A stretch of 37,902 nt of DNA from an uncultured virus (IMG/VR IMGVR_UViG_3300031613_000001) (taxonomy: Duplodnaviria > Heunggongvirae > Uroviricota > Caudoviricetes > Crassvirales), in IMG/VR virus record IMGVR_UViG_3300031613_000001; one strand, 5' to 3'. Every line of letters begins with the position of its first letter. Position 1 is the stretch's first letter. The notes under the pieces are model-generated. The model was given only the letters and a program-made list of their open reading frames with translations. It made no database searches and had not been told where the DNA came from. The translations under genes were made by a program, and so were the position numbers. Shown here piece by piece: positions 1-18,106 of this stretch.

Positions 1-3000
1 CTATTTTTACCTTGCTCTCTTACTAAATCACTTTTACTTATTTCACCTGTTTTTTTAAAAAAAGCAACAAGAGCTTTTGCGTCAATATTTCTTCTAAGAA
101 CACTTGATTCACCTATTACAGTTAATAAAACATCTGCTTCTGCTTCTATTTCTTTCTTTTGTTTGTAATTTTCAGCCATCATAGTATCCATAGCTAACAT
201 AGTACTTAAATCATAAGATTGATCTTTAACATTTATTTTATTTCTATAGTAAACAGGTAATGAATTAACAGCTTGATTATTTAAATCTGTACGAGTTCTT
301 TCATACATTTGATCATCAGTTTCTTCATTTATTAAATTACCGTAACTATCTTCATCTTTTCTATCTTTAAAAATATCTTTTATTCCTGTTTTAACAGCAT
401 TTACAGCTTTACCACTGAGTATTTTATCACTAGTTGACTGTGTAATACCATTTAATCTAATAAAAACAGGTCCATCTTCAAAAGGTTGTCTAAAAAGACT
501 ATTTATACCATTAGTTTTTTCATTGTTTTCTTTTAATTGCTGAATATAAAAATCATAATAATCTTTTTTAAAACCACTTAAAGCAGTGTATTTTGGATTT
601 ATCCATTTATTAATAGGTTTATTATTTTTATAATTTTCTTTAATCCATTTATTTCTTTCATTTTTAATTTGAATATGTTCTTTACTACCATATTCTAAAT
701 TATTTAACTTTCTTTCAAAATCTTCAACTATATCATTAAACTCTGATTTATATTGAGTTACAAAATATTGATTATCTTTGGTTTTATCAAGCATAAAAGC
801 ATAACGCTTTTCATTAGAATTACCTTGGAAATTAGCTTTTCTTTCTTTTACTGCTATTTTATTACGTTGAGTCATTGATACTTGTCTAACTTTAAAATCA
901 GCTTCATCAATTTTTTCACTCAATATACTTATAAAAGTACTATCTGTTAATTTTTCACTAGATGCATAAGTATCAAAACCTGAAATGTCTATATTAATAA
1001 GATCTAAACTTTTTCTTATTTTTGCTCTTTTTTCAGCTTGAATAGAATCTATATTTTCATTCATTTGCTCAGTTATATATTCATCTTTAGTATAACCTGT
1101 AGGTTTGTTTTTATTATATTCTCTTTCAAAGATTTCATAATACTCTGTAGTAACCCTATCATTTTTAGCTGCTAAAGGTTCTATTAAAGCATCTTTCATT
1201 TTATCAATTAAAGATTTATAAACTGTATTATATTGAGATTCTACATAATCTAAATTTTTTGTAAGTTTTTTATATTCTTCTTCAGTTATTTTATTATATT
1301 TTTTTAAACTAAAAGCAATATCTCTAATGCTATCATTATTAGAAAATATTACCATATAAGATTTAAATCTAGATAAATAATCTAAAGAAGGGTTCTCTTT
1401 ATTTTGTATTGAATTTTTTAATATATATAACTCATCTACTGAAAAATTTAGATATTCTAATATTGCTTTTTCTTCAGATTTACTTTGAAGATCTTTTAAA
1501 TTATCTTGTATTTTTTTATATTTATCTTTATATTTACCACCTTTTGCATCATTTGACTTAACTTTAACATCTTCAATAGTTGCATATATACGTGTTATAA
1601 GATTTTTTACGTTAGTAAGTTCTTTTTCAAGATTGTCTTCAATCTCTTTTTTACTTTTTATACTATCTCTAGTTCTTTTTTCAAAAGTCATATTAAGAGA
1701 TGACTGATTATTATTACTATATTCTTCTGATGCAATATCTATAATGGAATTTACAATTTCTTGAACTTTAATAGAATCATAATTTTTATTATTTAAACCT
1801 AAAAATTCTTTAATTGCATTTATAAATTGCTTCCATACAGATTCATTACTTTCAACAGCTTTTAATTTATTTCTAAAGCTACTATTAGTCATTATCTCTG
1901 ATGTAAATTCATTTATATTAGTGAAACCATAATTGTCACCTTTTAAATTTGCATACTCAGCAGCTTTAGTATAATAATCAAAAGCTTTTTGTATATTATT
2001 TCTAAAAGCAATTTGTTTATCAGTTTTAGGTTGATTAAGAGCTACAGCTGTTATGTCATGTGTTCCTTCATGTAATATAGATTCTATAACATAATAAAGA
2101 TTAGAGTTTCCTATAATGTCTTTATTTAATAATATAGTACGAGTTAAACTATCATATCTACCAATAACTTCGTCTGTTAAAACAGCTGATGTTACAAATT
2201 TAATTTTAGATCTACTAGGTAGTAAAGCTTTCATTAAAGCTAACCCTTCTTCATTTATTTTTATATTAGAATTAGAATATAAATTTCTAAGAAAAGCATT
2301 TAAGGTAGTAGGTTTAAATGTACCATCAAATAACTCATTTAAAATATCAGATTTGTTTTTATTTATTTCTTCTTCTGATATATTAGCAGGTGCTATTGAA
2401 ACTTTTGTTTTATCAAACATAAAAGATTTATATTCTTTCTTTTTAGCTTGTTGACGCTCTAAATTTAAAGTAAACGATTCATTACTATCTTCTAACTTAG
2501 TAGTTATTTCATTCCAAGTATTATTAAACTCATCAGTAACTTCTTGAATACGTCCTTTATATAATTTATTAAGAATATTAGTAACTCTATTAGTATAAAA
2601 AGCTTCAATAGGTTTAAGTTTCTCAATTCCTTGAGATTTCATTTCTTGTTTTTGTTTTTCAAGGTTTTCAAGAGTTTTAGTTCTATTTACTTTTTTAAAT
2701 ATAGCTCCTTTTTCTTCTAATTGTTGTTTTTTTGTTTTACCTATACCGTCATAATCAGAATTTAATTCTTGCTCTGTCAACCCACTTGCAGATAATTCCC
2801 CATCAGGTCTATACATATCATATGTAAACTTTTTCTTTTCTTCTTCTATTTTAGCATTAAGTTTTTTAATGTCATCAGCAATAGTTTGATGACCTTCTAC
2901 TTTAGCAGCAGTTTCACCTGTAGGAAATAATACTTTTTTATAACCTTTTTTAACACTATCTTGAACTATAGCTTGTATAAAGAAATTAACCCAATTACCT

Positions 3001-4679
3001 TTTTTGTTTAGAAGTTGTAGAAATTTGTTTTCTTTATTTTGTAATAAACTTATTTTAGTATTAACTCTATCTAGATCTATTTTAATAGTACCTTTTAATA
3101 TATTTAAAGTTTCTTTTTCTAATTTATCTTCTAATTCTTTCTTTTTAGTTTCTAACTCTTGTATATTATCAGTATTCACTAAATCCTTTTTATCCCTACC
3201 TTTTTGAAATAAATCACTCTGCAACTCTAAAATTCTTCTGGTTTTAGAATTTTTAGAATTAAACAAATCTTCTTCAAATTGTTCATTACTTATTAAATTA
3301 TTGTTTTTAAAACTTTCAAATACAATTACTCCTCCAATTTTAACTTGTTTTCTTACGTATGTATCATCTTTAAATGTAAAATTATTAGTAAAATGAGTAT
3401 CTTTTATATTATTAGTTGTTTTATTGTCACTCCTAAACCAACCTATACCATTATCTGTACTAAACTGACCATGACCTTTAATATTAGGTACAATATCAGG
3501 TGTAGCTATTTCATTTTCTGTGTAATTAGTACCTCCTGGGACTGTAAGATTAGAATAATATTGAGTATTTTTTTCTTCTAAATCTTCTTCTTGTTCAAAA
3601 TAATAACTATCATCTAATGCACCATCTTCTGTATTTCCTAAAAAACTATTACTTCTTTTTTCTTTAGCAGTATTAATTTCAACAGTAAAACTATTTTCAG
3701 CTAATAAAGATGTAATAATTTCTTCTCTTAGGTTGTCTTGATTATATATTTTAGCTTGTTCTTCTTCTGTAATAATGTAAATTTGTTTTGAGTCAAATAT
3801 TGCAATATTAGTTTTTTCAATATTTGCATCAAATCCCTTATCAATTAGTTCTTGATTGCTTTTACCACTCCTGTTATTACTTCTTGAATTAACATTTTCA
3901 CTATAAGGATTTGATACATTTACAACAGCTTTTATTAACTCTCCTTTATCGTAAACGGAAGCTTCTTTGATATTTTTATCAAAGTATATTCCAGTACCCA
4001 AATGAGCAGAATTTAAACCAGCAAAAATATGGTTTACAGCATTAAATTTTTCTTTATTTTTTATAGGTAAATTTGAATAATCTTGATTAAATTCAGGATA
4101 ATCTAAAATTAACTCTTCATAAGAAGAATAAGATTTATTTTTATATATTCTCTCTGGACGAGAACTTCCATGATATACTATTTGCTTTACTTTTGTATCA
4201 GGAAATATAGATTTAATAAACTCTTGTTCAGAAACTTTACCTTTATACTTATCTAATATAATTTGCTTTTGTTCTTTAGGTATTTGAAGCTCTGTTAAAA
4301 TTTTATTAAGATCCCAACCATTCTTATTAGCTTTAGCAAATACTTGTGTAGCTTTATCAGTATTAAGAATTTCTACAGCTGACAATTTATAATTAGCATT
4401 ATTACTGTTTCTAAAATTGTCAATAGCAATCATGTATTTATCATAAAGTTTATCTGATATTGTTATATTAACAGTACCAGGAAGGTCAGTTACGTCGTTT
4501 TTTACGTAACTAACCATCTTTTCTTTTACCTTATCATTAATTGCTTTAATAGCATTTAAGTTATCAGTATTAAACTTTTGAGTAACTGTTGCTACGCCAT
4601 TAGTAATTTTACCTATATTTTTTACTTCTCTTTGTACAAGATTTTGTACTGTAATATCTACGTCTAATTTACACGCCAT
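1..4679 (-). CDS. Giant virion cargo/polyvalent protein (phi14:2 gp67-like position), 3' end outside the window; ART-like, GNAT-like and zincin domains
   Basis: Not in the ORF track. Manual translation from ATG at 4679 (MACKLDVDITVQNLVQ...) stays open to the window edge (1559 codons). It contains SIFPDTKVKQIVYHGSS...LGTGIYF...KGFDANI...AIFDSKQI (~4210-3775), YSNLTVPGGTNYTE...LELQSDLFQK...KKGYKKVLFPTG (~3560-2500) and ILHEGTH...YGFTNINEF (HExxH at 2072-2058). It lies directly downstream of the RNAP gene, as in crAss-like phages. Confidence 0.88.
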   Translation of the reverse strand, partial: MACKLDVDITVQNLVQREVKNIGKITNGVATVTQKFNTDNLNAIKAINDKVKEKMVSYVKNDVTDLPGTVNITISDKLYDKYMIAIDNFRNSNNANYKLSAVEILNTDKATQVFAKANKNGWDLNKILTELQIPKEQKQIILDKYKGKVSEQEFIKSIFPDTKVKQIVYHGSSRPERIYKNKSYSSYEELILDYPEFNQDYSNLPIKNKEKFNAVNHIFAGLNSAHLGTGIYFDKNIKEASVYDKGELIKAVVNVSNPYSENVNSRSNNRSGKSNQELIDKGFDANIEKTNIAIFDSKQIYIITEEEQAKIYNQDNLREEIITSLLAENSFTVEINTAKEKRSNSFLGNTEDGALDDSYYFEQEEDLEEKNTQYYSNLTVPGGTNYTENEIATPDIVPNIKGHGQFSTDNGIGWFRSDNKTTNNIKDTHFTNNFTFKDDTYVRKQVKIGGVIVFESFKNNNLISNEQFEEDLFNSKNSKTRRILELQSDLFQKGRDKKDLVNTDNIQELETKKKELEDKLEKETLNILKGTIKIDLDRVNTKISLLQNKENKFLQLLNKKGNWVNFFIQAIVQDSVKKGYKKVLFPTGETAAKVEGHQTIADDIKKLNAKIEEEKKKFTYDMYRPDGELSASGLTEQELNSDYDGIGKTKKQQLEEKGAIFKKVNRTKTLENLEKQKQEMKSQGIEKLKPIEAFYTNRVTNILNKLYKGRIQEVTDEFNNTWNEITTKLEDSNESFTLNLERQQAKKKEYKSFMFDKTKVSIAPANISEEEINKNKSDILNELFDGTFKPTTLNAFLRNLYSNSNIKINEEGLALMKALLPSRSKIKFVTSAVLTDEVIGRYDSLTRTILLNKDIIGNSNLYYVIESILHEGTHDITAVALNQPKTDKQIAFRNNIQKAFDYYTKAAEYANLKGDNYGFTNINEFTSEIMTNSSFRNKLKAVESNESVWKQFINAIKEFLGLNNKNYDSIKVQEIVNSIIDIASEEYSNNNQSSLNMTFEKRTRDSIKSKKEIEDNLEKELTNVKNLITRIYATIEDVKVKSNDAKGGKYKDKYKKIQDNLKDLQSKSEEKAILEYLNFSVDELYILKNSIQNKENPSLDYLSRFKSYMVIFSNNDSIRDIAFSLKKYNKITEEEYKKLTKNLDYVESQYNTVYKSLIDKMKDALIEPLAAKNDRVTTEYYEIFEREYNKNKPTGYTKDEYITEQMNENIDSIQAEKRAKIRKSLDLINIDISGFDTYASSEKLTDSTFISILSEKIDEADFKVRQVSMTQRNKIAVKERKANFQGNSNEKRYAFMLDKTKDNQYFVTQYKSEFNDIVEDFERKLNNLEYGSKEHIQIKNERNKWIKENYKNNKPINKWINPKYTALSGFKKDYYDFYIQQLKENNEKTNGINSLFRQPFEDGPVFIRLNGITQSTSDKILSGKAVNAVKTGIKDIFKDRKDEDSYGNLINEETDDQMYERTRTDLNNQAVNSLPVYYRNKINVKDQSYDLSTMLAMDTMMAENYKQKKEIEAEADVLLTVIGESSVLRRNIDAKALVAFFKKTGEISKSDLVREQGKN

Positions 4680-4690
4680 AATTTATTATT

Positions 4691-7600
4691 TTAACACTGT
4701 GGTTCAGTTGGTACATCATTTTCACCAAATAAATCTAATTGTTCATTTTCTTTTTTACTATTAACGTTTTCACCAGTTTCATTTACATTTTGTAAAGATA
4801 AAACATTTTCTTCAGACTGCAAAGTTTTTTCTAATTGTTTTATATCACTATTAAATATAAGATCTTTTAAAGCATCTACATTTTTATATCTTTGTGATTC
4901 TAAATAATGAGCTGTTTTAGCAGCTTCTACAAAATCTAAAACTTTTAATTGATTAGCAATATCATCTTTTTTTGGATTTACACCATCATTATTTTCAAGA
5001 AAAGAACTTTGTTTCTTACCATATTCTTTATAAGTTACTTTAGAAGATTTATTTCTATAACCTTTCTTTTCAATTCTTTCATAAACAGGAGCATAATAAA
5101 AATCAGTTGTTTGACCTGCTGGATTTAATATAGGTCTTTTTATATTACCTACATATTCATATAAAGCAACTTGATTATCTTCACTATCAAAAGATAGTGA
5201 TTCAGTTTTAATATATGGTGTATAAGATTCAGTAGATAAATCAGTAGAATTATCTGAGTTTTTTCTACTATCTACTTTATATGATTTTAAAGATTTTTGA
5301 TTGTTTATATATACTAAGTTATTAGTTTTTTGTATACCAATAATTAAATCTGCATTTATTTTTCTAACAATTTTATTATCTTCATAATTGTTTTGTGCGT
5401 ATTCTTTATGAAAGCTCTGTGCATAACTAGAATTACTCATTTTAATCATTTGTTCTCTAATAAAAGCTTGAACTGATTGATATAAATTTTGATTAACTAC
5501 ATTACCTTTAGAATCTGTTGTATTTCCAGTATTAACTTTATGATAATTTAAAAAAAACTCATGAGGTATCATATCATTAAAATCTATTAATGATTGGTTA
5601 AATCCATTCATTACAAAAGAAGATCTAATAATATCTTTACCTAATATAAAATCATTTTTATAAATATCATAAAAAGCATTTGAAATATCATTTTTTTGAT
5701 TTACATCTAATTTAGATATATCTATACCAAATGAATTTTCATAAAATGTTAAAACATTAATAAATGCATTACCATTTTTTTCTGCTTGTTTATTTTGATA
5801 TTTAATAATTCTTTCTTTAACATCATTAACAAAATCAACAGGATTACCTTCAATTTGTAAAACTGGATATTTAGACATTAATGAAGAATATAATTCTTTA
5901 CTTAATTTAGATATCATTTTTTTATCAGTAGATCTACCCATAGAACCACCATAAGAACTTGCTGTTGTCATTGATATATTATCTATAACATTTAAAAATT
6001 CTCTGTTAGCACTTAAAAATATACTAGGATTAGCATTTAATATATCAGATGCAAAAAATACAGAATTTAATAACTGTGTACCTAAAGAAGTTAATTTATT
6101 ATTTCTAACATATTTTTCCATATGTCCGTTTAATTCACCATCTTTTTCTTGTTTATTAAATAAATCAAGTAAATTATTTTGATAAACTAACATATCTGAA
6201 AAATTCTTACCTGAACCTAATGTATCAAATCTAGACAAATTAACAGATGATTCTAATTTTTTAGATTTATCTTGGTAATCTTTAAACGTCATTAAAATTT
6301 CAATATCTTTTATTGTAGGATTTTCAATATCTGAATTATATGAATCTACAAGTTCTGAATAAGAATAAACTTGTCTATTTGTTTTTTTAAGTTTTTCAAT
6401 TTCTTTATTTATTAAAAAAGGATCAGTATTATTTATATGTTTAGAAACTGTATCATATAATAAAGCTTCATAAGAAGACTTATTCATATGCTTATCTTCT
6501 TTTTGTACAGATATTGATTCAAAGTTTTTTGTAAACTCAGTTAATTTTTTTAAAATAGGTTGACCTATAAAAGCATCAGTCCAATAAGGATGAACACCAG
6601 CTCTTGTAAGCATAAAAGCTACATTACTAGTATATGTATCGTAGTTACCTTGTTCTATATAAGGATCTTTAGCATTATCAACAAAAGCATTCATAAATGC
6701 AGATATTGTATCACCTATTTTAAAAGATCTTAATGTTTTATAACTAACTTTTTCTCCAGTATTTTCTTTAATTCTTGCAGCTGCTATTTTAGATTCTTCT
6801 ACAGTAAGTTTTATAGAAGAAGATGTACCAGTAAGAGGATTAGTATCAAAAACAGTTTCATTTTTAGCATTTACAAAACCTAAACCATCACCTATATTAT
6901 ATTGATTAAATCTAAGATTAACCATATTTTTAGATATATTATGGTCAACTGCCATATTAGCCGATATACCAACACCTGCTTTACCTAACATATAAGTGTT
7001 TTTAAGATCTACTTGATATATACCATCGTAAAACTTAAAGTTTTCATTTACATCACCTTTTGTATTTAAAGATTTAATATGATTTTTAACATAATCAAAA
7101 TCAATAGGTCTAATTAAATCTGGATATGTAGATTTATTAGTTAATATAGACCAATAAGCATCAAATAACATGTTATTTAAACCTTTAGTAGTTTCTTTAT
7201 TTGAAGGTGCTTTTTCTATTTTAGAAATATTACCTTCTCCTATTGATTCAGCTAAGGCTTTTGATGCTTTTGATTCACCTTTTACTATATGATCAACTAT
7301 AATGTTAAAATACTGATCTTCTAATAAATATTCATCTGTAGCTGAAAATAATGTAACCATTTCTTCTTTGGTTAATTGTATACCAGTTTGTTCTACTAAA
7401 TCATCATAAAATTCTGTTATTTCATTTACATCATTTACATTACTTACATTATTTTTTATAACGTTATTTAAATACTTTTTAGCAGCTTTATAAGTTTTTT
7501 TATTATATGTATACTTTAATTCAGGTAACATTACATACATTTTATCAATATCAAAGTCACTACCTGTTTTAGTAGTGATTTCAGTATATGCTATAATAGT

Positions 7601-10600
7601 ATCATTCATGTTTGGAGGTAATATACCAACTATGTCTAATGAGTCGTTAGAACTCATTCCTTGGTTTGGTATACGATATCCTATTATTTTTAGTATTTCA
7701 GGATCTAATTTTTCATTAAGTTCTTTTATAGTCATCTTTCTATAATTAGGTATAGCTTTTGCTATATCAGAATGAGATATAAATACTTGACCCGGTTTTT
7801 GTTTTATATTGCCATCTTTATCTTCATATAACGTAGGTGGTTTTAATTCACTTGGTTCAACTAACCAAGTTACACCTATTTTATTACCTTCAGCTATATC
7901 AATACCATAGTTAGACATTTGAATAAATGAACCACCATTAGTTTTAGTATTACTAGCTGCTCTTCTTATTTTAGAAAATAATATAGAATACATTTTATCT
8001 CTCATTGAAGGCATTGCTTCAATAAGCATTCTTTTATTTACTGCATCTTTTATATTATCACTAAAATCATCAGGGTTATCATCTATTTCTTGTTGGATAA
8101 TTTCATAAAGCTTTTCTTTATTTATTGTATTATCTTCTTCTTTACCTAAAATTTTTGCAAGCTTTTCTATTCCTTTATTTGAAATATCAGAAAGTATACT
8201 ATTGATATGATCTATAATTCCAAAACCTCTATATTCAATACCATCTACATTGTATATTTCATCTTTTTTAACTGATGAATATATATTTTTTTGTATTTGA
8301 GAACCTAATAAAGTTTGTTTCATTAACTTAACTGGAAGATCTTGTTGTAATTTCCACTCAAAGTTATTTAATTTTTGTATATTAAAATTTATTTTATCAC
8401 CAGATATATTAACAGGTATATTAGCACCTACTTTAACACCTTGTACAGTAACTGCTTCATCAACACCTTGATTAATCATTTCATTATAAAGAGTCTCTAA
8501 TTTAGACTCATTAACTAATATTGGACTAAGTACAGCTTGTGAATATTTCATATATGTAGGAACTCCATTAACTACACCATAATAAACACCTTTAAGTGGT
8601 TGTGATGATAATTTTAATTCCTTAGCTGTAAAAGGTTCTTTATTTTCATTAAGCATTTTATCATATACAGCATTATGAGCATCTGTCCATTTACCTGCTC
8701 TATCTAATATAAACTTCCACCTTGCTGGTGTTATCCACGCTTGTGCATCAGTTTGATCTACACTTTCTTTATAACCACCTATTATATTTTCTCTTTCTTT
8801 TTTATTAGTTATACCAGCTAATTTTAATGAATTATCTAAATTTTCATAATATTTAGAACCAGCTACTTGGTCTTCTACTACAGCCATATTAAATTTAGAA
8901 TCACCTTCTGTTAAACCTAATCTTAAATATGTACCATCTGTATAAGTAGCTGGAACACGTTTAAAGAAATCAACCATTGTTTTATAATAAGCTGGATCTC
9001 CTGTAAATAATTTAGTATATTCAACATTTGCTATAATAGTATTAATAGTATAATCTGATACCATATGGTACAAAGAAGATCTAGTAAAAACTCCATCTTC
9101 AGCATTATACGTATTTCTTATTTTATTATCAATAGCAGCAAACGTATAACTATTATCTGATAATCTTTTGATTATACCTTTTTTAATTAAAGATGATACA
9201 TTTTCTACAAGTCTAGTAGTTAACATTCCATTTAAAATATTAACAATATTTGCTTTATGAACATCTTCGTTTAATTCATTTTTACCAAGATTAGGTGAGT
9301 TATCAGAATTAAAAATATTAGAAGCTGCTAATTTACTTTTTAAAGTATTATAGTTAATTTCAGGTGATATTTGAGATTTAAATGCCTGACCAACTAATTT
9401 TTTATTAGGTTGATTATTATTTTGATAATCTTCAAATGTTTTTATGGAAACTGAATCACCATTAATATTGTCATACGAACCTACATTACCATTTTTATCT
9501 GTATGATAATGTAATTTTAAATCTTCATATTTTTGAGTTTTTAAATCGTTAAATGCATCAACCATTCTATTATATTCATCTGTAAAATAATTATAGAATT
9601 TATCAGTTGTTTCTTTAGTAAATGACATGTCTTTTGACGTTCTTATATTCTCTAAAGTTTCATTAAAAAATTGACCTATTTTAATTTCATATGCAGTAGA
9701 TTTATCTGCTGGTAATATAGTAGAATATATAGGTGTAATAGAACCTGTAAGCTCACCATTATCATTAGTGATACTAGCACCCATTACTTTACCAAATCTA
9801 TCTATAATCTGATCTACAGACGATATTGATTTATTATCAACAGCTTTATCAGCTTTATTTTTTTCTTGATATTGTAAAAATCTAGTAGAACTAAATTCAT
9901 CTAATCTTTTATTAGACATATCTTCTCTATCTTTACCTACATAAACAAATTTACCTTCTGAATCTAATTCTTCAGCAAGTAAATAATCTACAAATAAACT
10001 GTGTTTACTTATACTTTTTTTTCTAATATCTTTTAATAATTGTTTATCTTCTTTAAATAAATTAATAGTATTAGATAAAAAAGATGGATTTCCATAAACC
10101 CAAAACATTTTATTCATACTATAAACAGTAGAATCTTTTATATCATTTTGTGTTTTAGCTGTATAAACAGCAAGATCATTAAACAATCTAGATTTATTAT
10201 TATCTATAAATGAATAATTTTCTACATCTTTATTTTTTTTAAAATCTAACAATGCTTGATTTAATGCTGAATAAAGATCAGTAATGTTTTTTCTAACGTC
10301 TTTTGCAAATGTTTCACTTTGATTATTTTCAACCAATACTGAATGCATTACAAATTCATCTATATTATCAATACCTAATTGTTTAAATATAGATATTAAA
10401 CCTTTTTTTTCATTTAATACAGCTCTTTTGTATTCTGAAGAAAATCTATCTAAGTTAACAGTATCAAGATCTATACCTGAAAATATAGCATTTTGCCTAT
10501 CAAATGAATTTTTATATTTATCTATAATAGAATATAATAAATCAGAATTTATTTTACCATCTTTAGTAAATTTTTTAACTATTTTTTGTTCCCAGTTTTT

Positions 10601-11860
10601 TAATATTTTAGATTCAACACTAGATTGTTTTGCTGCATCAAATCTTTTAAATACACCATTTTTTAAATCATTTTCAGTTACATAATGCTCGTTTTTAGAA
10701 TGGTTCATTGCTGCAACAAATTCACTCTTTTTACTTTGATTAAAATCTTTACTTTCTAAAATCTCAACTAAATCTCTATAATGTGGTTTTTCACCAAATT
10801 CACTTTTTATTAAAATTAACATTTTATTAAAAACATCTTCTATTTTACCACCTTTTATAGTTGGTACTACATCAGATAAAAGTTTTAAAAGATCATCATG
10901 TACAGTATTACCATCTATAAATTTACTGCTTTGAAATAAACTAGTCTGAACTTGTTCAAACATGTCATTACCATCTGCTAGTTTATAAAGTTTATTTATT
11001 CTATAAGCAGGTAAAAAAGCTAAAAGAAGTTTTATATTAGCACCTGCTTTATCTTTAGTATTTTTTTCTACAGAAGCAACTGATTCACCACGATCTTCAT
11101 TATTATCTTTTTCTTCTTCTTCTTCTATTTCATTAGTAGAATCATTAATAATAAGACTTTTTGATTTAAAATAAGATAATATTTGATTTTTTAAATCTGC
11201 TTTTCCAAATTTAAGCTTTTCAGATATCTTTAATCTTTCATCATTTAAGATCATTTCATTATCAATATCTTCTTTTATTTCTTCTATAGAAAGATGTTTT
11301 GCTGGATTAGGTTCATCACCATTATAATCTTGTAATATTTGTTTATCACTTTGATTAAGTATTTGAGGTAAAAATTCTTTTAAAGATAGAGCTTCTTCAT
11401 ATTCAGAATCTATAAATTCATCAATAGCTTTATTAATGTTTATATTATTAATAGACTCTAAATCATTAAAGTTTGCTTTAATATTTTGTTTAAATATATT
11501 ACCAGCAATGATATTAACAACTTCTTTTATTTTAGTACTTCTATTCTCTATATTAAGATATTCAAAAGTACGAGGTGTGACATCAATACGATTATGAAAT
11601 TTATCTAAATAATAATGTATATCTTTACCACCAACTTTTTTAGTATATAATCTAGGTTCGTTTTGTTCATTTAATCTTTCACCTGTTGGATCAATTTCAT
11701 TAGGATCTATTTTATTTACATCTTTTTCATCTACTCTCCAATCACCAAATATGTTTAGAAATTTATTTGATGAAAGGTTTTGATAATGGTTACTTGCCAT
11801 TTCCTCATTTTTAAAAACTTCTGTTAATCTATCACGTGTTATTTTAGTTATACAGCTCAT
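4691..11860 (-). CDS. Virion-packaged single-chain double-psi beta-barrel RNA polymerase (crAss-like, phi14:2 gp66 type)
   Basis: 2389 aa. Catalytic loop KTGSDFDIDKM (DFDID at 7558-7544) is preceded by GYRIPNQGMSS. Also carries TDAQAWIT, QPLKGVY, KYSQAVL, GSQIQK, GVGISAN and FVDNAKDP blocks, which I recognise from crAss-like vRNAPs. It is flanked by two other giant genes. Confidence 0.93.
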   Translation of the reverse strand: MSCITKITRDRLTEVFKNEEMASNHYQNLSSNKFLNIFGDWRVDEKDVNKIDPNEIDPTGERLNEQNEPRLYTKKVGGKDIHYYLDKFHNRIDVTPRTFEYLNIENRSTKIKEVVNIIAGNIFKQNIKANFNDLESINNININKAIDEFIDSEYEEALSLKEFLPQILNQSDKQILQDYNGDEPNPAKHLSIEEIKEDIDNEMILNDERLKISEKLKFGKADLKNQILSYFKSKSLIINDSTNEIEEEEEKDNNEDRGESVASVEKNTKDKAGANIKLLLAFLPAYRINKLYKLADGNDMFEQVQTSLFQSSKFIDGNTVHDDLLKLLSDVVPTIKGGKIEDVFNKMLILIKSEFGEKPHYRDLVEILESKDFNQSKKSEFVAAMNHSKNEHYVTENDLKNGVFKRFDAAKQSSVESKILKNWEQKIVKKFTKDGKINSDLLYSIIDKYKNSFDRQNAIFSGIDLDTVNLDRFSSEYKRAVLNEKKGLISIFKQLGIDNIDEFVMHSVLVENNQSETFAKDVRKNITDLYSALNQALLDFKKNKDVENYSFIDNNKSRLFNDLAVYTAKTQNDIKDSTVYSMNKMFWVYGNPSFLSNTINLFKEDKQLLKDIRKKSISKHSLFVDYLLAEELDSEGKFVYVGKDREDMSNKRLDEFSSTRFLQYQEKNKADKAVDNKSISSVDQIIDRFGKVMGASITNDNGELTGSITPIYSTILPADKSTAYEIKIGQFFNETLENIRTSKDMSFTKETTDKFYNYFTDEYNRMVDAFNDLKTQKYEDLKLHYHTDKNGNVGSYDNINGDSVSIKTFEDYQNNNQPNKKLVGQAFKSQISPEINYNTLKSKLAASNIFNSDNSPNLGKNELNEDVHKANIVNILNGMLTTRLVENVSSLIKKGIIKRLSDNSYTFAAIDNKIRNTYNAEDGVFTRSSLYHMVSDYTINTIIANVEYTKLFTGDPAYYKTMVDFFKRVPATYTDGTYLRLGLTEGDSKFNMAVVEDQVAGSKYYENLDNSLKLAGITNKKERENIIGGYKESVDQTDAQAWITPARWKFILDRAGKWTDAHNAVYDKMLNENKEPFTAKELKLSSQPLKGVYYGVVNGVPTYMKYSQAVLSPILVNESKLETLYNEMINQGVDEAVTVQGVKVGANIPVNISGDKINFNIQKLNNFEWKLQQDLPVKLMKQTLLGSQIQKNIYSSVKKDEIYNVDGIEYRGFGIIDHINSILSDISNKGIEKLAKILGKEEDNTINKEKLYEIIQQEIDDNPDDFSDNIKDAVNKRMLIEAMPSMRDKMYSILFSKIRRAASNTKTNGGSFIQMSNYGIDIAEGNKIGVTWLVEPSELKPPTLYEDKDGNIKQKPGQVFISHSDIAKAIPNYRKMTIKELNEKLDPEILKIIGYRIPNQGMSSNDSLDIVGILPPNMNDTIIAYTEITTKTGSDFDIDKMYVMLPELKYTYNKKTYKAAKKYLNNVIKNNVSNVNDVNEITEFYDDLVEQTGIQLTKEEMVTLFSATDEYLLEDQYFNIIVDHIVKGESKASKALAESIGEGNISKIEKAPSNKETTKGLNNMLFDAYWSILTNKSTYPDLIRPIDFDYVKNHIKSLNTKGDVNENFKFYDGIYQVDLKNTYMLGKAGVGISANMAVDHNISKNMVNLRFNQYNIGDGLGFVNAKNETVFDTNPLTGTSSSIKLTVEESKIAAARIKENTGEKVSYKTLRSFKIGDTISAFMNAFVDNAKDPYIEQGNYDTYTSNVAFMLTRAGVHPYWTDAFIGQPILKKLTEFTKNFESISVQKEDKHMNKSSYEALLYDTVSKHINNTDPFLINKEIEKLKKTNRQVYSYSELVDSYNSDIENPTIKDIEILMTFKDYQDKSKKLESSVNLSRFDTLGSGKNFSDMLVYQNNLLDLFNKQEKDGELNGHMEKYVRNNKLTSLGTQLLNSVFFASDILNANPSIFLSANREFLNVIDNISMTTASSYGGSMGRSTDKKMISKLSKELYSSLMSKYPVLQIEGNPVDFVNDVKERIIKYQNKQAEKNGNAFINVLTFYENSFGIDISKLDVNQKNDISNAFYDIYKNDFILGKDIIRSSFVMNGFNQSLIDFNDMIPHEFFLNYHKVNTGNTTDSKGNVVNQNLYQSVQAFIREQMIKMSNSSYAQSFHKEYAQNNYEDNKIVRKINADLIIGIQKTNNLVYINNQKSLKSYKVDSRKNSDNSTDLSTESYTPYIKTESLSFDSEDNQVALYEYVGNIKRPILNPAGQTTDFYYAPVYERIEKKGYRNKSSKVTYKEYGKKQSSFLENNDGVNPKKDDIANQLKVLDFVEAAKTAHYLESQRYKNVDALKDLIFNSDIKQLEKTLQSEENVLSLQNVNETGENVNSKKENEQLDLFGENDVPTEPQC
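4793..4823 (-). promoter_or_regulatory. Candidate Bacteroidota sigma-A promoter inside the RNAP 3' end
   Basis: Minus strand reads TTTG(4823-4820)-N19-TATCTTTA(4800-4793). This is one mismatch from the TTTG-N19-21-TAnnTTTG consensus and lies ~113 nt upstream of the ATG at 4679. Confidence 0.4.
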
Positions 11861-11863
11861 ATA

Positions 11864-14800
11864 TTATTTATTACAACCTTCGTTTAAGTCGTTATCTTCG
11901 TTTTTCTTTGCGTTTGCTTTTTTCATCATATTAGCATACTTACTTTTACTTCTAGTACTTTTATTAACCACAACTGGTTTTATAATATGTTCAAGTGTAG
12001 GGGAATTTTTATTAGCTTTCTTAGCTTTTTTAGCTTCAGTTTTATTATTAACTGGAATAACATCATATAAGTTATCTAAAAACTCAGCTTTTTCATAAGT
12101 TATTGTATTAGTTTCTTCTAAAACTTGTTTATTACTATCTTTTATTTTTCTATTTCTATAATCTTCAACATTATTTAAATATTCTTGTTCTTCTTTAGAA
12201 TATTGACTATTTTCTGGATTTTGTTTTTTCTTGTCTTTTATAGCTTTAATAGTTGTTTTTTTAGTAGGTTCTTTTTTTACTACTGGTTCTGTTTTCTTTT
12301 TATTAGGTTTAATATCTATTGGATTATTACCCATGCTAGGATCTAAATAAATAGCTGTAGAACCTTGAAATACAGGTTGTCCTAATTTAACATCTGTACT
12401 AATTATACTATTAAAAAGATGTTTTTTATAAGCAGTAGTATTAGATGCTTGCTTATTTATTTGTCTATTTTTTTCTGTAGTAAGCCATTCAATTATTTCT
12501 TTTTTTGCACCAGCTAATTCAGAAAAAGGTATAAGTTGGTCTTTCATTCTTAAACTAGAACCTTCTATAGAAAATGCATTTTTATCAGTATTACCTTTAT
12601 ATACAAAATTACTAAAAAATGATATTATGTTAGTATTTTTACTTTTTTTATTTAGTGCTTTTAATTCATTAAAAACATAATCTCTTTCTTCTTTTGTAAA
12701 GATAACACTTTCCATTAACATATCCAAATTATCTTTATATGATAATTTAATAGAAGAACCTGTCATTGCTTCTACAATCTTATATATTATTTCAGCTTCT
12801 AAATTATTAATACGTCTTTGATTGAGTTTTAGAGGTATTGTACGACCATTAGCCATTTTTATTGATATATATACTTGACCAGCGTGTTTAACGCTATTAA
12901 AACTATCTACTTGATCATGGTTACTATTTCTTAATGTCCCTTGTGAATCAGAAAACAATACTTGCACATTATTAAGACTTTCTATACCAAATACATTAGC
13001 TTTACCGTTTTCATCATATATTTTATTTACAGCAGGTTTACCATTAACCCTATCCATTTGTATTTTACCTGGCATTTGAAACTTAATAGTACTTGTAGGT
13101 TTATTACCTTTAAGAATTTCAAGTATAATACCTTTTTTTAATTCATAAGTAGTTTTATAAACATTAATATTTCCTCTTTCATCATTTTTTTTATTAAGAA
13201 ATGATAAATGACTATATCCACCATTTTTTGTTAATACTTTAATAGGTAAATAATTAGCAAATTCTTCAATTTCTTCTTCTGTTAATTCAGTTCTTTCTTC
13301 ATTTTTTAAAATTTTTTTAAATTTTAATAAAGCATCACTAGCTAATTTGTTAGATTGAGGATTACCTAATTCAAAACTAACTTTCTCACCTAACTTATTT
13401 TTTTGTTTTTCAGTATATTCAAAAAATTCACTATTTGATGAAAGAGAACCTTTTAAGTCAACAACTTTAGCATCTGTACGATCTTCTTCTTTTTGTTTAT
13501 TTTCAGGTAAGTTATTTACTTCATTAGAAATTTCTTCATTAATAAAAGTACCTGTTGAAATATTATCACTATTAGTAAATTCATTACTAGAATTAGAGTT
13601 TAACTTTTCTTTAGATTTAGAAAGTTCCATAGCAATATCCCATTCTTTTTTTAATTGCCTAGCTATTTCAGCTCTATCTGTATAAATTTTTTCTCCATTA
13701 TACATTTCATTAGTTGTAGAACTATTTAAATAAGATTTTAATATTTTAATTAATGCTTTTTCATAAAAAGTTAATAATTGTTTTTCATTTAACGTACTAT
13801 TACCTATAGGTAATGCTATTCCAACTGCTTGATCTCTACTACTTTCAGTTGTTTTTGGAAATTGAGCTTTAATATGTCCAGATAATACTAATTCATTTGT
13901 AGATTTATCTTTCTTTAAAGATACTTTTACATTTAAAATTTCGTTTTTTGCATTAATAGAATTTTTTGCATTACTATCTGGATAATTTGTTATTCCATTT
14001 TCATTTTTAGTATTTAAAACATCAACTTCATTTGGATCAGAAACTGTTTTTTCAATTTTTTCATATTTTCCTCTGCTACTAGCTATTGAAACCATAAATA
14101 AACCAGTTTTAGTTACATTATTTTTTTCTTTTTCAAAAAATTCATTTTTATTTTCTTTATTAGTAGGTTGTTGTGAAAAACTATTTAAAGCATCTCTTTG
14201 AGCTTGGTATTTGGCTTTTATTTCTTTAATAGTAACATCATCTGATATTTTTGTATCTATATCAATTAACTGTTCTGACCAATACATGACATCTTCTAAT
14301 AAACCATTTTCTAATTTTACGGTAGGTTTATTAAATTTAGTAGACCATATATTTATACTCTCTTGAAATAATGTTATTAGATTATCTAATATATTTTTAA
14401 ACAAAGAAGTTTTTTTACCTTCTCCTTGCATTTTAGATAAATCTTGTTGTAGACCAATATCAGAAAAAGCTTCTGCTAAAAATTCAGATAAATTTGTAAA
14501 TCCATATTGATTTTTATCTGTAGTTAATGATAAAGCTTTATTAAAAAGTCTATCTAAGTTTTCCCATGCTGTTTTTTGAATTTTTGATAAATTTGATTTA
14601 TCTCCTCTTTTATAAGCTTTGTATTCTTTAGTATTTAATACCTGATGAAATAATTCATGTATTAAAGTTTTTACAGCTACAGCGTCTCCTTCTAAAATTC
14701 TATCATATATATCACTATCTAAATCTATACCTCCTTCATAAGCTTTTCCATTAACTTTTCCTCCTCCTCTATCACTTTGTAAATTTTCAACCCTTGATAT

Positions 14801-17800
14801 AGAGTACTTAGATAAATCTAGTAATTTTTCTAGTAATCTTAATACTTTACCAGTTAAACTATTATTTTTAAATTTTTCTTTTAATACCTTAAATATTTCT
14901 TTTGTATTTTCTCTTCCTTTTTTTAATTCTTCTTGTCTGTTAGAATTATTTGCATAATTTAATTCTTCTTTTTCAGCTTCATTTATTTTATCAAGTTCAA
15001 GAGTTGTATTATTTAAAGCGTCTCTTTGAGCTTGATATTTAGCTTTTATTTCTTTTACTACAGAATATAATTTACTTGTTTTATTTATATCATTAAAAAA
15101 TACATTACCTATTTCAGAAGAAAAGAATCCTAATTGAGGTTTAAATCCTGGTTTATTAATAATTTTTATTTCTTTTATAGTGCCTTTTGTAGGTGGTCTA
15201 TTTATTAAATTACCTACCAAAACTTCTTCCCCTATTAAATTAATTTCTAATTCTTTTTGTTCAGCTTTATTAATCTTTTCAAGATCAGATTTTTCTTCTT
15301 CTTCTTCTACATTATCAACTTCTTCTTGTTCATCATTAGTTGTATGTGTAGTATCGTCTTCAACAGGAGGTTTTTTTTCTTTAGGAACTTCTTGTCTGCT
15401 TAATTCTATTCTACTAACAGTTCTATCATTTTCATCAATTATTTCTACATCTAATACTTCAAAATTTATAGTATTATTAACAGCTTTATTATATTTAATT
15501 TGATTTCCAATTTTTAAACCTTCTATATCAAGATTAGTTTGGCTTATTATATCTATTAAATCTTGAGTTAAAGGTTCTATTATAACATCTTTACCTTGTT
15601 TATCAAGTTCAGTTAATAATGTATCAAGTAATAAATTATTATTATTTACTTTATTTACTAATTTAGTTCTTTTTTTATTAGCATTTTTTTGTTCTCTTGT
15701 TTTTTTAGCTTTATTATCTTTTTTAATAATTTCTTCTTCAGCTTCTTCATTTTTTTTCTTTTCTTCTTCAGCTATTGTTTTTTCTAATTCTTTAATTTTT
15801 TCAGCTTTATCTTTTTTTTCTTTTAAAGTTTGTTCAAAATATTGTTTTAAAAGTTTTTCATCATATAATGTTTCAATAGTTGATTCTTCATTTAATATAG
15901 CAGTTGCTGCTGATAATATTTCATTTTTTTTAGAATTATATAATTTACTTTTAGGTTGATTTTGATACCATTCTAAAAAAGAATCTTTTGAATTAAATCC
16001 ATCTTTTTTATTTTGAAATTCTTCAAATGATATAGATGGTATATTTGAAATATTTAAAGCACCACCTTCTTTTGTTTTTACATTAGAAAACTTAGAAATA
16101 TTTTTATATTGAGTTTTAGAAGTTTCTGTTTTAAGTTGATAATTTTTTAAAGCTTCTATTTCTAATTCTGCAAATTCAGTTTCTGCTTTACTTTTATTTT
16201 TTTCAAGAAACCTTTTATTTTGTTTTGCAAAAGTTTCAAGCATATTCATTTCTTTATAAAACTCATTTAAATCTTCTTTATTTTCAGAAGATGTTTCTAT
16301 AGGTGTAAAGTATTTTAAATATTCAGTAGATTTTTCATAATCTTTCTGCATATTTTTAGCTTGTTCTACTATTTTTGCAGTATAACTTTCTCTATTTTCA
16401 TTTTCACCAAAAGCTTTATTTTGAGCATTTACTTTATCAATTAAATCTTCGTTTTGTTTAAGTGATTTTTCAAGAATTTCAACACCCATTTCACCATTAG
16501 TAATAAATGGTAATAAAAAAGCAGATATAAAGTTATTTATATTAGCTTTAGCTACAGCTTTATCTTTTTGTGGTAATACACCATTATTTTCTTCTTTAAC
16601 CGCTTCTATTTTATCATAAAGCTGACTCATAGCTTCAAGTTTTTTTACTTCTTCTCCATATTTAACAGCAAATTCTTGATTAATTTCTCTTTTACCTGTT
16701 TCTTCATTTATAGTAAATAATTTACTAGGGTCTAAATTAAATAATCCCAAAGCTTTTTCCATTGCTGGAGCAAGTTTTTGTCTTCTTTTTTCACTAACTT
16801 TATCATTACTATATTTACTATATGCATTCATAGGACCTCCAAGTAATGCACCTAATGCAATTGCTTTCTGTCCATCTACTGTTGTTAAAGTATGTATATA
16901 AGAATTTACAACACCTGTAATACTAGCATTTTCATTATCTTCGGCTTCATTCATGTACATATGCTCAACAGAACTTTGCATAGCTTCTTCCCAGAAACCT
17001 TCTCTTGCACCACCTTTAACTAATTCTTTACCATAACCAGCAATATTTTTAGCAGTAAAAATTGATTTAGGATCTGTTAATATTTTACCTGCATCATCTA
17101 TATAATCAGAAGCTACTTTAGAACCACGTTTAGCTCCAAATAAAATTTTATTACTAATTGCATTAGGTCCTACTAATATAGCTACATTAGACCAAAATAT
17201 ATTTCTACCAAGATCAGCTTTACTTTCAATAAAAAATTGTTCAGCTTCTTCTTCAGTTAATCCTTTTTCTAATTGTTTATTTATAAAGTTTTCTTTTTTA
17301 CTTTCAAAAGCTCTCATTGCACCTCCTGATTCAGCACCTGCTTCAAAAAAAGTATTAGCTACTGTTGCGTTAAAGACATCCATACCTTTATCAGTTGCTT
17401 TAATAGATTCTAAAGCATCCTGAGCAGCTTCTGCTGATTTATACATTCCTTTAGCTCCTTTACTAGCACCTTTCATCATAATTTTACCAAGACCTAATGA
17501 TTTAAGGACTGCTCCTGGAACAAACATACTTGCAATATAACCAACTCCATCAGCACCTTCTGTAGCCCAAAAATCTATAGATGTTAAATTATCTATTAAA
17601 TTACCATTTTTTACAGAATTTTTAACATAAACAGGCAATGCTTCATTATTTATATATTGATTAGCATCTTCTATGGTTCTTATCCAAGCATTGTTAAATA
17701 TAGTTTCAATAAGAGGTTCTTCAGAAAAAGGTGCAGTAATTAAACCACCAACTAAACCACCAATCATACCTGGCATTTTAGCAACTTCTGCAGCAACTTT

Positions 17801-18106
17801 AACACCAACACGACCTAAACCACTCATAGTTTTATTAAAACCAGATTGTTGTTGCGCTCTATATTCATTAAGATCTTTTATGCCATCTAAATATTCATCA
17901 CCAAATATATAATCTTTATTAGAAGAACCCATTACAAAACTTTCAGTATCTGCTCTGTCAGGATCTAAAAAATCTCCATATTGAGATTCTAAATAACTTA
18001 ATTCTCTTGAACTATTTGCTTTATTTTTAAAATTTTCAAATTCAGGATCAGTATCCATTGCTGAACTTTCAGCATTCATTTTCATTAAATTTAATAAATT
18101 TCCCAT
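11864..18106 (-). CDS. Giant ejection/cargo protein (phi14:2 gp65-like position) with N-terminal Gly/Ala-rich membrane-active region and internal zincin metalloprotease
   Basis: 2080 aa. Hydrophobic Gly-rich segments (PGMIGGLVGGLITAPF, GVGYIASMFVPGAVL, IALGALLGGP), an EGFWEEAMQ motif, long charged coiled coils, and LIHELFH (14659-14645) followed by YGFTNLSEFLAE. It lies immediately upstream of the RNAP. Confidence 0.8.
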   Translation of the reverse strand: MGNLLNLMKMNAESSAMDTDPEFENFKNKANSSRELSYLESQYGDFLDPDRADTESFVMGSSNKDYIFGDEYLDGIKDLNEYRAQQQSGFNKTMSGLGRVGVKVAAEVAKMPGMIGGLVGGLITAPFSEEPLIETIFNNAWIRTIEDANQYINNEALPVYVKNSVKNGNLIDNLTSIDFWATEGADGVGYIASMFVPGAVLKSLGLGKIMMKGASKGAKGMYKSAEAAQDALESIKATDKGMDVFNATVANTFFEAGAESGGAMRAFESKKENFINKQLEKGLTEEEAEQFFIESKADLGRNIFWSNVAILVGPNAISNKILFGAKRGSKVASDYIDDAGKILTDPKSIFTAKNIAGYGKELVKGGAREGFWEEAMQSSVEHMYMNEAEDNENASITGVVNSYIHTLTTVDGQKAIALGALLGGPMNAYSKYSNDKVSEKRRQKLAPAMEKALGLFNLDPSKLFTINEETGKREINQEFAVKYGEEVKKLEAMSQLYDKIEAVKEENNGVLPQKDKAVAKANINNFISAFLLPFITNGEMGVEILEKSLKQNEDLIDKVNAQNKAFGENENRESYTAKIVEQAKNMQKDYEKSTEYLKYFTPIETSSENKEDLNEFYKEMNMLETFAKQNKRFLEKNKSKAETEFAELEIEALKNYQLKTETSKTQYKNISKFSNVKTKEGGALNISNIPSISFEEFQNKKDGFNSKDSFLEWYQNQPKSKLYNSKKNEILSAATAILNEESTIETLYDEKLLKQYFEQTLKEKKDKAEKIKELEKTIAEEEKKKNEEAEEEIIKKDNKAKKTREQKNANKKRTKLVNKVNNNNLLLDTLLTELDKQGKDVIIEPLTQDLIDIISQTNLDIEGLKIGNQIKYNKAVNNTINFEVLDVEIIDENDRTVSRIELSRQEVPKEKKPPVEDDTTHTTNDEQEEVDNVEEEEEKSDLEKINKAEQKELEINLIGEEVLVGNLINRPPTKGTIKEIKIINKPGFKPQLGFFSSEIGNVFFNDINKTSKLYSVVKEIKAKYQAQRDALNNTTLELDKINEAEKEELNYANNSNRQEELKKGRENTKEIFKVLKEKFKNNSLTGKVLRLLEKLLDLSKYSISRVENLQSDRGGGKVNGKAYEGGIDLDSDIYDRILEGDAVAVKTLIHELFHQVLNTKEYKAYKRGDKSNLSKIQKTAWENLDRLFNKALSLTTDKNQYGFTNLSEFLAEAFSDIGLQQDLSKMQGEGKKTSLFKNILDNLITLFQESINIWSTKFNKPTVKLENGLLEDVMYWSEQLIDIDTKISDDVTIKEIKAKYQAQRDALNSFSQQPTNKENKNEFFEKEKNNVTKTGLFMVSIASSRGKYEKIEKTVSDPNEVDVLNTKNENGITNYPDSNAKNSINAKNEILNVKVSLKKDKSTNELVLSGHIKAQFPKTTESSRDQAVGIALPIGNSTLNEKQLLTFYEKALIKILKSYLNSSTTNEMYNGEKIYTDRAEIARQLKKEWDIAMELSKSKEKLNSNSSNEFTNSDNISTGTFINEEISNEVNNLPENKQKEEDRTDAKVVDLKGSLSSNSEFFEYTEKQKNKLGEKVSFELGNPQSNKLASDALLKFKKILKNEERTELTEEEIEEFANYLPIKVLTKNGGYSHLSFLNKKNDERGNINVYKTTYELKKGIILEILKGNKPTSTIKFQMPGKIQMDRVNGKPAVNKIYDENGKANVFGIESLNNVQVLFSDSQGTLRNSNHDQVDSFNSVKHAGQVYISIKMANGRTIPLKLNQRRINNLEAEIIYKIVEAMTGSSIKLSYKDNLDMLMESVIFTKEERDYVFNELKALNKKSKNTNIISFFSNFVYKGNTDKNAFSIEGSSLRMKDQLIPFSELAGAKKEIIEWLTTEKNRQINKQASNTTAYKKHLFNSIISTDVKLGQPVFQGSTAIYLDPSMGNNPIDIKPNKKKTEPVVKKEPTKKTTIKAIKDKKKQNPENSQYSKEEQEYLNNVEDYRNRKIKDSNKQVLEETNTITYEKAEFLDNLYDVIPVNNKTEAKKAKKANKNSPTLEHIIKPVVVNKSTRSKSKYANMMKKANAKKNEDNDLNEGCNK
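14182..14227. repeat. 46-nt direct repeat, copy B (encodes KEIKAKYQAQRDALN)
   Basis: 43/46 identical to 15010-15055. The three differences are synonymous third-codon positions. Confidence 0.95.
15010..15055. repeat. 46-nt direct repeat, copy A (encodes KEIKAKYQAQRDALN)
   Basis: 43/46 identical to 14182-14227. The offset of 828 nt (276 codons) keeps the two copies in frame. Confidence 0.95.

Follow-up and report, generated by a model that had tools for sequence, protein, structure and literature searches.

Three consecutive giant proteins encoded on the minus strand of a 37,902-nucleotide (nt) stretch of DNA from an uncultured crassvirus (IMG/VR record IMGVR_UViG_3300031613_000001; the whole stretch is hereafter the window) hold only four Cys among 6028 residues, and open reading frame (ORF) translation with a count of Cys places each of them no more than three residues from one of the four ends at which these proteins face one another. 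An RNA polymerase (RNAP) stands in the middle, flanked by an upstream and a downstream giant cargo protein, and we consider it probable that the three are joined head to tail through these sole Cys residues, most likely by inter-protein disulfides. The raw letters at both gene junctions match the translated Cys positions, and the N-terminus of the 2080-amino acid (aa) upstream protein carries no Cys. The first-pass annotation of the window, which was made from its letters, had given these counts and coordinates together with the lack of Cys in the upstream protein's N-terminus and in two neighboring proteins of 782 and 687 aa, and all of them proved exact when compared with translation and raw sequence (Table 1). 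Given the counts, uniform placement would bring all four Cys within three residues of the facing ends with a P of about 9e-12. The remaining ORFs of the window carry 29 Cys in 4846 aa, and at that background rate the giant proteins would be expected to contain 36 Cys in 6028 aa versus the 4 seen (Poisson P 1.7e-11). The C-terminus of the downstream protein lies outside the window and its Cys count covers the 1559 visible aa; in the closest relative (locus L001, RNAP segment 68% identical) the downstream homologue is 1840 aa long and has Cys 3 only.

By its match to phi14:2 gp66, whose crystal structure is known (PDB 6VR4; E 0, 1154.9 bits), the middle protein is identified as a crassvirus virion RNA polymerase homologous to gp66. 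The upstream and downstream proteins match a gp65-like and a gp67-like protein of a second relative, L002 (phmmer E 6e-123 and 6e-97, respectively), and the cargo blocks gp65-gp66-gp67 of phi14:2 and gp47-gp50-gp49 of crAss001 are homologous to the three proteins of the window. Pfam matches upstream of the giants are to the muzzle protein (crAss_MUZ), cargo protein 1 (crAss_CARG1) and the tail ring proteins CrAss_Ring_1 and CrAss_Ring_2, while Pfam and PHROGs searches with the three giants returned only a sub-threshold SAC3 match and one unnamed PHROG. The G+C content of the window is 25.7%, and a near-identity DNA search with positions 4000-12500 against a phage collection gave no match. On this evidence the window carries the cargo block of a phi14:2-related, uncultured crassvirus. 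Phi14:2 gp66 is described as entering the cell and transcribing the early genes (bioRxiv 10.1101/2020.03.07.982082), and crAss001 gp47, gp49 and gp50 as being found in virions by mass spectrometry, with partial unfolding argued for their passage through the tail (PMC10172136); by homology to these two phages, the three proteins of the window would likewise be present in the virion and delivered to the host.

Table 1. Features of the window and Cys residues of related phages. Positions without a locus prefix are those of the window; residue numbers are those of the protein named.
Feature	Position	Strand	Remark or basis
Upstream giant cargo protein	11864-18106	-	2080 aa; sole Cys is residue 2078 (...EGCNK, stop)
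Codon TGT of upstream Cys 2078, third residue from the C-terminus	11873-11875	-	Raw sequence and translation
RNAP, middle protein	4691-11860	-	2389 aa; exactly two Cys, residues 3 and 2389
Codon of RNAP Cys 3 (MSC...)	11852-11854	-	Raw sequence and translation
Codon of RNAP Cys 2389, last residue (...EPQC, stop)	4694-4696	-	Raw sequence and translation
Downstream giant cargo protein	3-4679	-	1559 aa visible, 3' end beyond the window edge; sole Cys is residue 3
Codon of downstream Cys 3 (MAC...)	4671-4673	-	Raw sequence and translation
DFDID catalytic motif, RNAP residues 1435-1439	7544-7558	-	Pattern search
HELFH motif, zincin-type signature, upstream protein residues 1150-1154	14645-14659	-	Pattern search; no Pfam match
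782-aa cargo-block protein	18106-20454	-	No Cys
687-aa cargo-block protein	20456-22519	-	No Cys
L002			Upstream 1797 aa (Cys 1797); RNAP 2180 aa (Cys 3, 2179); downstream 1421 aa (Cys 3)
crAss001			gp47 (Cys 2339 of 2341); gp50 (Cys 5, 1334 and 2404 of 2412); gp49 (Cys 5)
DAC15, IAS virus			Terminal Cys kept
CrAssphage LMMB, crAss002			RNAP+downstream fusion; Cys kept only at the upstream C-terminus and RNAP N-terminus
FpV4 gp32, cr118_1 gp14, cr114_1 gp021			Upstream+RNAP fusions; only the C-terminal Cys kept; next protein starts MAC, MIC or MNKYC
LMMB 861-aa protein	L082:7205-9790		Lone Cys 860
crAss002 gp30	L083:6405-8078		Lone Cys 550 of 557
FpV4 gp30	L084:8036-9832		Lone Cys 5

Across Crassvirales the placement follows a near-universal rule, with one Cys at the C-terminal end of the upstream protein, one at each end of the RNAP and one at the N-terminal end of the downstream protein. 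The comparison set comprised 80 loci with RNAP relatives at 23-68% identity, mapped by ORF calling and phmmer, and the Cys tallies refer to non-redundant loci, with 12 near-duplicates removed along with 2 loci whose ORFs were fragmented or absent. Over 337,539 aa of the three families we counted 53 interior Cys (0.016%) versus 191 Cys no more than 20 residues from an end, and the other ORFs of the same loci have a Cys frequency of 0.31%. The N-terminal Cys occupies position 3 in 55 cases, position 4 in 22, positions 5-7 in 20 and position 13 in one (positions 3-7 in 97/98), and the C-terminal Cys is followed by 0-3 residues in 85 of the 93 cases; codon usage at Cys is TGT 170 times and TGC 21 times. 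The first and last 20 residues of the chain are free of Cys (0/48 N-termini, 0/60 C-termini), and the counts for homologues of the two smaller cargo-block proteins are 0 Cys in 7405 aa (782-aa protein) and 7 Cys in 15,861 aa (687-aa protein). In alignments of the RNAP C-terminal 120 aa (A1) and of the downstream N-terminal 450 aa (A2), each of 50 rows with a mean column identity of 10%, Cys is the sole invariant column. An independent sample, the best 120 of 658 database homologues, has Cys at both ends in 109 members and 11 interior Cys in 285,993 aa; the other 11 members, several of which are short fragments, have Cys at the N-terminal end only (5), at the C-terminal end only (5) or at neither (1). 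The rule extends over marine and freshwater Flavobacteriia phages and the gut Steigviridae, Intestiviridae and Suoliviridae, with interior Cys commoner in the gut phages (the LMMB fusion has 7 and IAS gp056 has 9, for example).

The same module occurs with its genes split or fused, and the terminal Cys pair goes strictly with the split. Over the 72 non-redundant RNAP cores of the tree described below, the pair is present in 42/45 split and 0/13 fused cases at the upstream/RNAP junction and in 56/57 split and 0/12 fused cases at the RNAP/downstream junction, and the triple fusions (5472-5639 aa) are entirely free of Cys. Four junctions were counted as misses (L029, crAss002 gp33, L036 and L062), of which the first two are start-codon artefacts, the true start of L029 at Met 11 giving MVC and crAss002 gp33 giving MSC from Met 33. 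Among the true split junctions, about 100 in all, no more than 2 carry a single Cys. We built a tree of 72 non-redundant RNAP cores from the relatives and named phages (620 columns, IQ-TREE quick search, LG+G4), leaving out 10 near-identical rows and 7 core pieces shorter than 400 aa (from L071, L073, L077, L079 and L080), and the split or fused state and the pair state were assigned by hand. The upstream/RNAP junction shows at least 8 state changes and 5 independent contrasts on well-supported branches, of which the pair follows in 3-5 and opposes in 0; the RNAP/downstream junction shows at least 3 state changes and 3 independent contrasts, of which the pair follows in 2-3 and opposes in 0. 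The tree has long branches and these event counts are approximate, and the sign tests are under-powered singly (median p 0.125 and 0.25, respectively), whereas the raw association is near absolute. In two of the fused proteins (L033 and L038) the RNAP-like and downstream-like parts are separated by a divergent, Cys-free stretch of ~100 residues.

The fusions also disclose the direction of pairing. In upstream+RNAP fusions the surviving Cys are the RNAP C-terminal and downstream N-terminal ones only, and in RNAP+downstream fusions they are the upstream C-terminal and RNAP N-terminal ones only; because what survives is in every case the pair of Cys facing the remaining break, only head-to-tail pairing fits. 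Intramolecular pairing between the N- and C-terminal Cys of the RNAP was rejected, as an upstream+RNAP fusion would then leave two orphan Cys, which is not what survives. The first-pass annotation had arranged the Cys as C-terminal/N-terminal pairs in gene order and had staked this arrangement on terminal conservation among homologues, on loss of the pair upon gene fusion and on the two RNAP Cys not pairing with each other. The conservation holds down to about 25% identity, the pairs recur in chain order across the relatives, and both Cys are gone at the 13 upstream/RNAP and 12 RNAP/downstream fusions; the last point was decided by the fusion survivors. Two further candidates were set aside: remnants of polyprotein cleavage sites, because fused proteins have no Cys at the junction, and split inteins with protein trans-splicing, because the ends leave no room for intein halves, which take up about 100 and 35 residues from the catalytic Cys to the polypeptide ends.

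Rearranged and interrupted genes provided natural controls. The upstream gene of crAss001, DAC15 and IAS virus lies on the strand opposite the RNAP gene with the Cys kept, and the genes at a junction lie anywhere from -38 to +6169 nt apart (97 junctions). Because the Cys are kept across opposite strands, wide spacing and both Cys codons, selection is judged to act on the protein and not on a DNA motif at the gene junction. In locus L093 the RNAP gene is cut inside the DFDID motif by a group I intron (14120-15049), recognized by two partial RF00028 matches, neither of which reaches the gathering score (E 2e-6 and 6e-4), around a LAGLIDADG endonuclease ORF (E 5e-24), and no Cys flank this break; in L090 and L092, which are close relatives, the gene is uninterrupted. 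Two database proteins, P0119 and P0044, stop at the same point and were dismissed as exceptions, both types representing exon 1 of an intron-split gene, as was IAS gp055/gp056, which has overlapping frames in a record with ambiguous bases. Locus L035 (7532-19526) presents the converse case, in which a 1161-aa gene with a weak peptidoglycan-binding match has been inserted and the RNAP is made as two separate proteins encoded on either side of it: the new C-terminal RNAP piece begins MGC, and the N-terminal piece has ...ENCK, which looks like a former C-terminus, followed by 287 aa more. Taken together, the data show that a thiol is required on both sides of every real polypeptide break and nowhere else.

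We infer disulfide chemistry, its timing, an ordering role and reductive release along the following lines. Upstream Cys 2078 would pair with RNAP Cys 3 and RNAP Cys 2389 with downstream Cys 3, yielding one linear chain of >6,000 residues ordered like the single fused polypeptide of some relatives. Because the cytoplasm is reducing, the bonds would form either within the finished particle or once lysis has released it from the cell. The links would keep the proteins together and in order during storage and tail ejection, mimicking a fused single chain, and host reductants in the cytoplasm would uncouple the proteins after entry. Because the Cys lie within a few residues of the ends, the joint would be hardly wider than a single chain, and interior Cys would have been purged to prevent wrong bridges. 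Disulfides are reported in the tail and portal vertex of crAss001 (PMC10172136). A complex prediction for A1 against A2 returned a score of 0.01 and is informative neither way, and the Erv1/ALR family PF04777 was found in 0/5 related phage records and in none of the control genomes, hence is uninformative as well.

Several observations weigh against this proposal. The cytoplasm is reducing, and the terminal Cys are kept in gut crassviruses despite their oxygen-free habitat. The thioredoxin fold PF00085 was found in 0/5 related phage records, with the controls positive in 13/14 genomes. The upstream Cys of L036 stands 17 residues from the end, the RNAP of L062 has no N-terminal Cys (on a contig with an N and overlapping broken frames), and the Cys of the N-terminal RNAP piece in L035 is followed by its 287-aa extension. 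In some smaller cargo proteins a terminal Cys stands alone, and no head-to-tail partner for it is obvious (Table 1), such that terminal Cys may have other partners as well, and in some lineages the chain may extend further or homodimers may form. The gp66 crystal was grown from recombinant protein alone in dithiothreitol (DTT)/tris(2-carboxyethyl)phosphine (TCEP), and the phi14:2 study suggests cleavage of the fused polyprotein (bioRxiv 10.1101/2020.03.07.982082); if cleavage precedes packaging, chain continuity would not be needed. Finally, direct observation of a bond of this type comes from one phage, cyanopodophage A4, which is not a crassvirus.

The same disulfides could have a different role, namely to lock a folded, ordered cargo assembly in the capsid, as in the A4 pre-ejectosome, stabilizing its packing and fixing a 1:1:1 stoichiometry with no unfolded thread for sequential ejection, an explanation that we take seriously while regarding it as unlikely. 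In A4 the C-terminal helix of gp27 is described as lying in a cleft of folded gp26, with the disulfide adding stability (PMC12002296), and Bayfield et al. predict folded helical cargo proteins that undergo no more than partial unfolding in transit (PMC10172136). The RNAP-associated proteins of crAss001, however, are reported without ordered density (PMC10172136), fused and split forms have replaced one another repeatedly across the tree, a sign that selection maintains an unbroken chain, and Cys standing 0-3 residues from the C-terminal end and at positions 3-7 of the N-terminal end are placed more tightly than a fold-locking bridge needs.

As to the chemistry, the facing thiolates might be bridged by a metal ion or by other thiol chemistry, such as a Lys-Cys nitrogen-oxygen-sulfur (NOS) bridge, in place of a disulfide. 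Such a link would work in anoxic habitats and in the cytoplasm, and Lys is often found beside the C-terminal Cys (it precedes Cys in 22/93 cases, and a single K is the commonest one-residue tail, with 17 cases). Two ligands would nevertheless make a weak metal site, the vicinity of the ends lacks any other conserved His, Cys or Asp (the Cys being the sole invariant column), a shared four-Cys metal site is excluded by each pair being kept or lost independently, and the one solved analogue, A4, is a disulfide, all of which renders this chemistry improbable.

It is more improbable again that the terminal Cys do not pair with each other at all and instead bind a third partner (the portal, capsid interior, other cargo or their own copy) or protect or mark the terminus, as the lone terminal Cys in the LMMB 861-aa protein, crAss002 gp30 and FpV4 gp30 might suggest: no Cys stands at either outer end of the chain, the two Cys of a pair vanish together at fusions with the survivors always facing each other, and single Cys are confined to the two split junctions at most that were noted above. 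Chance, annotation artefact or a nucleotide-level junction signal such as translational coupling can be given almost no credence, for although the window genes abut (stop and start one codon apart, in frame) and TGT predominates, the placement probability and the 109 of the best 120 database homologues with both Cys speak against chance, and Cys kept with genes on opposite strands or up to 6169 nt apart, shifts of Cys position by a few residues and 21 uses of TGC speak against a signal in the DNA.

Further observations concern the same genes. At the junctions of the window, the upstream TAA stop and the RNAP ATG are one codon apart in the same frame (11860-11866, minus strand), and the RNAP/downstream junction is out of frame. 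About 20 residues ahead of its C-terminal Cys, the RNAP has QLDLF (residues about 2368-2374; window 4694-4760, minus strand), and 19/109 RNAP homologues have a similar pattern, [QE][LI]x[LIM]F, among their last 80 residues versus 1.3% of control windows; this pattern was set aside as a general docking signal, the 19/109 pointing to lineage specificity, and may be a lineage-specific docking motif. Apart from the zincin-type HELFH of the upstream protein, HEGTH is found at residue 870 of the downstream protein (2058-2072, minus strand), such that both outer giants carry HExxH, and HExxH is present too in the consensus of the aligned downstream N-terminal regions (A2); the phi14:2 preprint reports a zincin signature for gp65, and its zincin-like description is limited to gp65-type proteins (bioRxiv 10.1101/2020.03.07.982082). 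The cargo protein 1 homologue (22523-24826, minus strand; crAss_CARG1) has exactly two Cys, 358 and 366, 8 residues apart, and similar close pairs occur in its relatives (L002, 369/378; L003, 188/196; L004, 299/307 and 558/567; DAC15 gp080, 211/219 and 273/281), pointing to a small conserved loop or metal site in an otherwise Cys-poor protein. The annotated cargo genes of cr114_1 (L089, 8128-29643), read with table 11, contain 5-69 internal stops per gene with terminal Cys at the annotated ends, and these stops fit stop-codon recoding. Such recoding is known in some crassviruses.

Crassviruses are the most abundant phages of the human gut. A reducible covalent head-to-tail link offers a concrete hypothesis for how giant proteins are stored and delivered in order through a narrow tail, a matter on which Bayfield et al. 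left the cargo proteins unresolved and guessed that order depends on packing and mutual contacts (PMC10172136). If the proposal is true, the terminal Cys would constitute a redox-triggered coupling and uncoupling device for protein ejection that evolution turns on where giant genes split and off where they fuse, which would explain why the same module is found as one, two or three genes, and the single A4 observation would become a general principle of phage protein ejection. For annotators, a terminal Cys would then be a simple marker that distinguishes true protein breaks from introns or frameshifts in giant genes.

The first-pass annotation had known of no description of such a mechanism, which stands for crassviruses and has to be amended for other phages. 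A full-text literature search, which covered papers without their supplements, returned no paper linking crassvirus cargo proteins with terminal cysteines. The text of the phi14:2 preprint (Drobysheva et al.; the final Nature version and supplements lie outside this statement) contains neither 'cystein' nor 'disulfide', and the main text of Bayfield et al. (PMC10172136) contains no 'cystein' and 7 mentions of 'disulfide', which in the passages shown refer to tail and portal-vertex proteins. A disulfide in A4 (PMC12002296) and Cys suppression in N4-like phages (PMC11445570) are, by contrast, in print.

Comparison with these systems delimits what is new. The cargo proteins gp47-gp50-gp49 of crAss001 share the terminal Cys of the window. 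In the pre-ejectosome of cyanopodophage A4, a disulfide between gp27 Cys1715 and gp26 Cys5 was seen in the virion by cryo-electron microscopy (PNAS 2025, PMC12002296), and in the record of A4 (Anabaena phage A-4L, Saffermanviridae) gp27 (1717 aa) has Cys 1715 and gp26 (1114 aa) Cys 5 as their sole Cys, with none in gp29. As in the window, consecutive ejection-protein genes thus encode a sole Cys near the C-terminal end and then a sole Cys near the N-terminal end; A4 differs in having one link between two proteins, with no three-protein chain around an RNA polymerase, and in the portions of the source available the bond is described as a detail stabilizing a folded fivefold ring, rather than as a conserved rule or as tied to gene fusion (PMC12002296). 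When A-4L gp26-gp29 were compared by phmmer with every large ORF in the crassvirus loci, no match appeared at E<=10, and the likeness, in proteins without sequence similarity, would therefore be convergent or very old. In Schitoviridae, the ejection proteins (N4 gp50, DEV gp71-gp73) show suppression of Cys, which is ascribed to passage through a periplasm with disulfide-forming enzymes (PMC11445570). Like the window, these phages encode a giant virion RNAP and ejection proteins that nearly lack Cys, but their virion RNAP is a single polypeptide with zero Cys, whereas the chain of the window comes in pieces with one Cys on each side of every internal break, and the crassvirus proteins depart from a Cys-free pattern in that the interior is depleted while the terminal Cys are conserved. 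It is tempting, if still short of probable, to generalize that terminal disulfides replace peptide bonds across Crassvirales and, convergently, in A4-like cyanophages, such that an ordered covalent thread of ~6,000 residues would be dismantled by the host cytoplasm. The type of bond has one published example, and what the crassviruses would add to it is a three-protein chain around a virion RNAP, conservation throughout an order and coupling to the splitting and fusion of genes.

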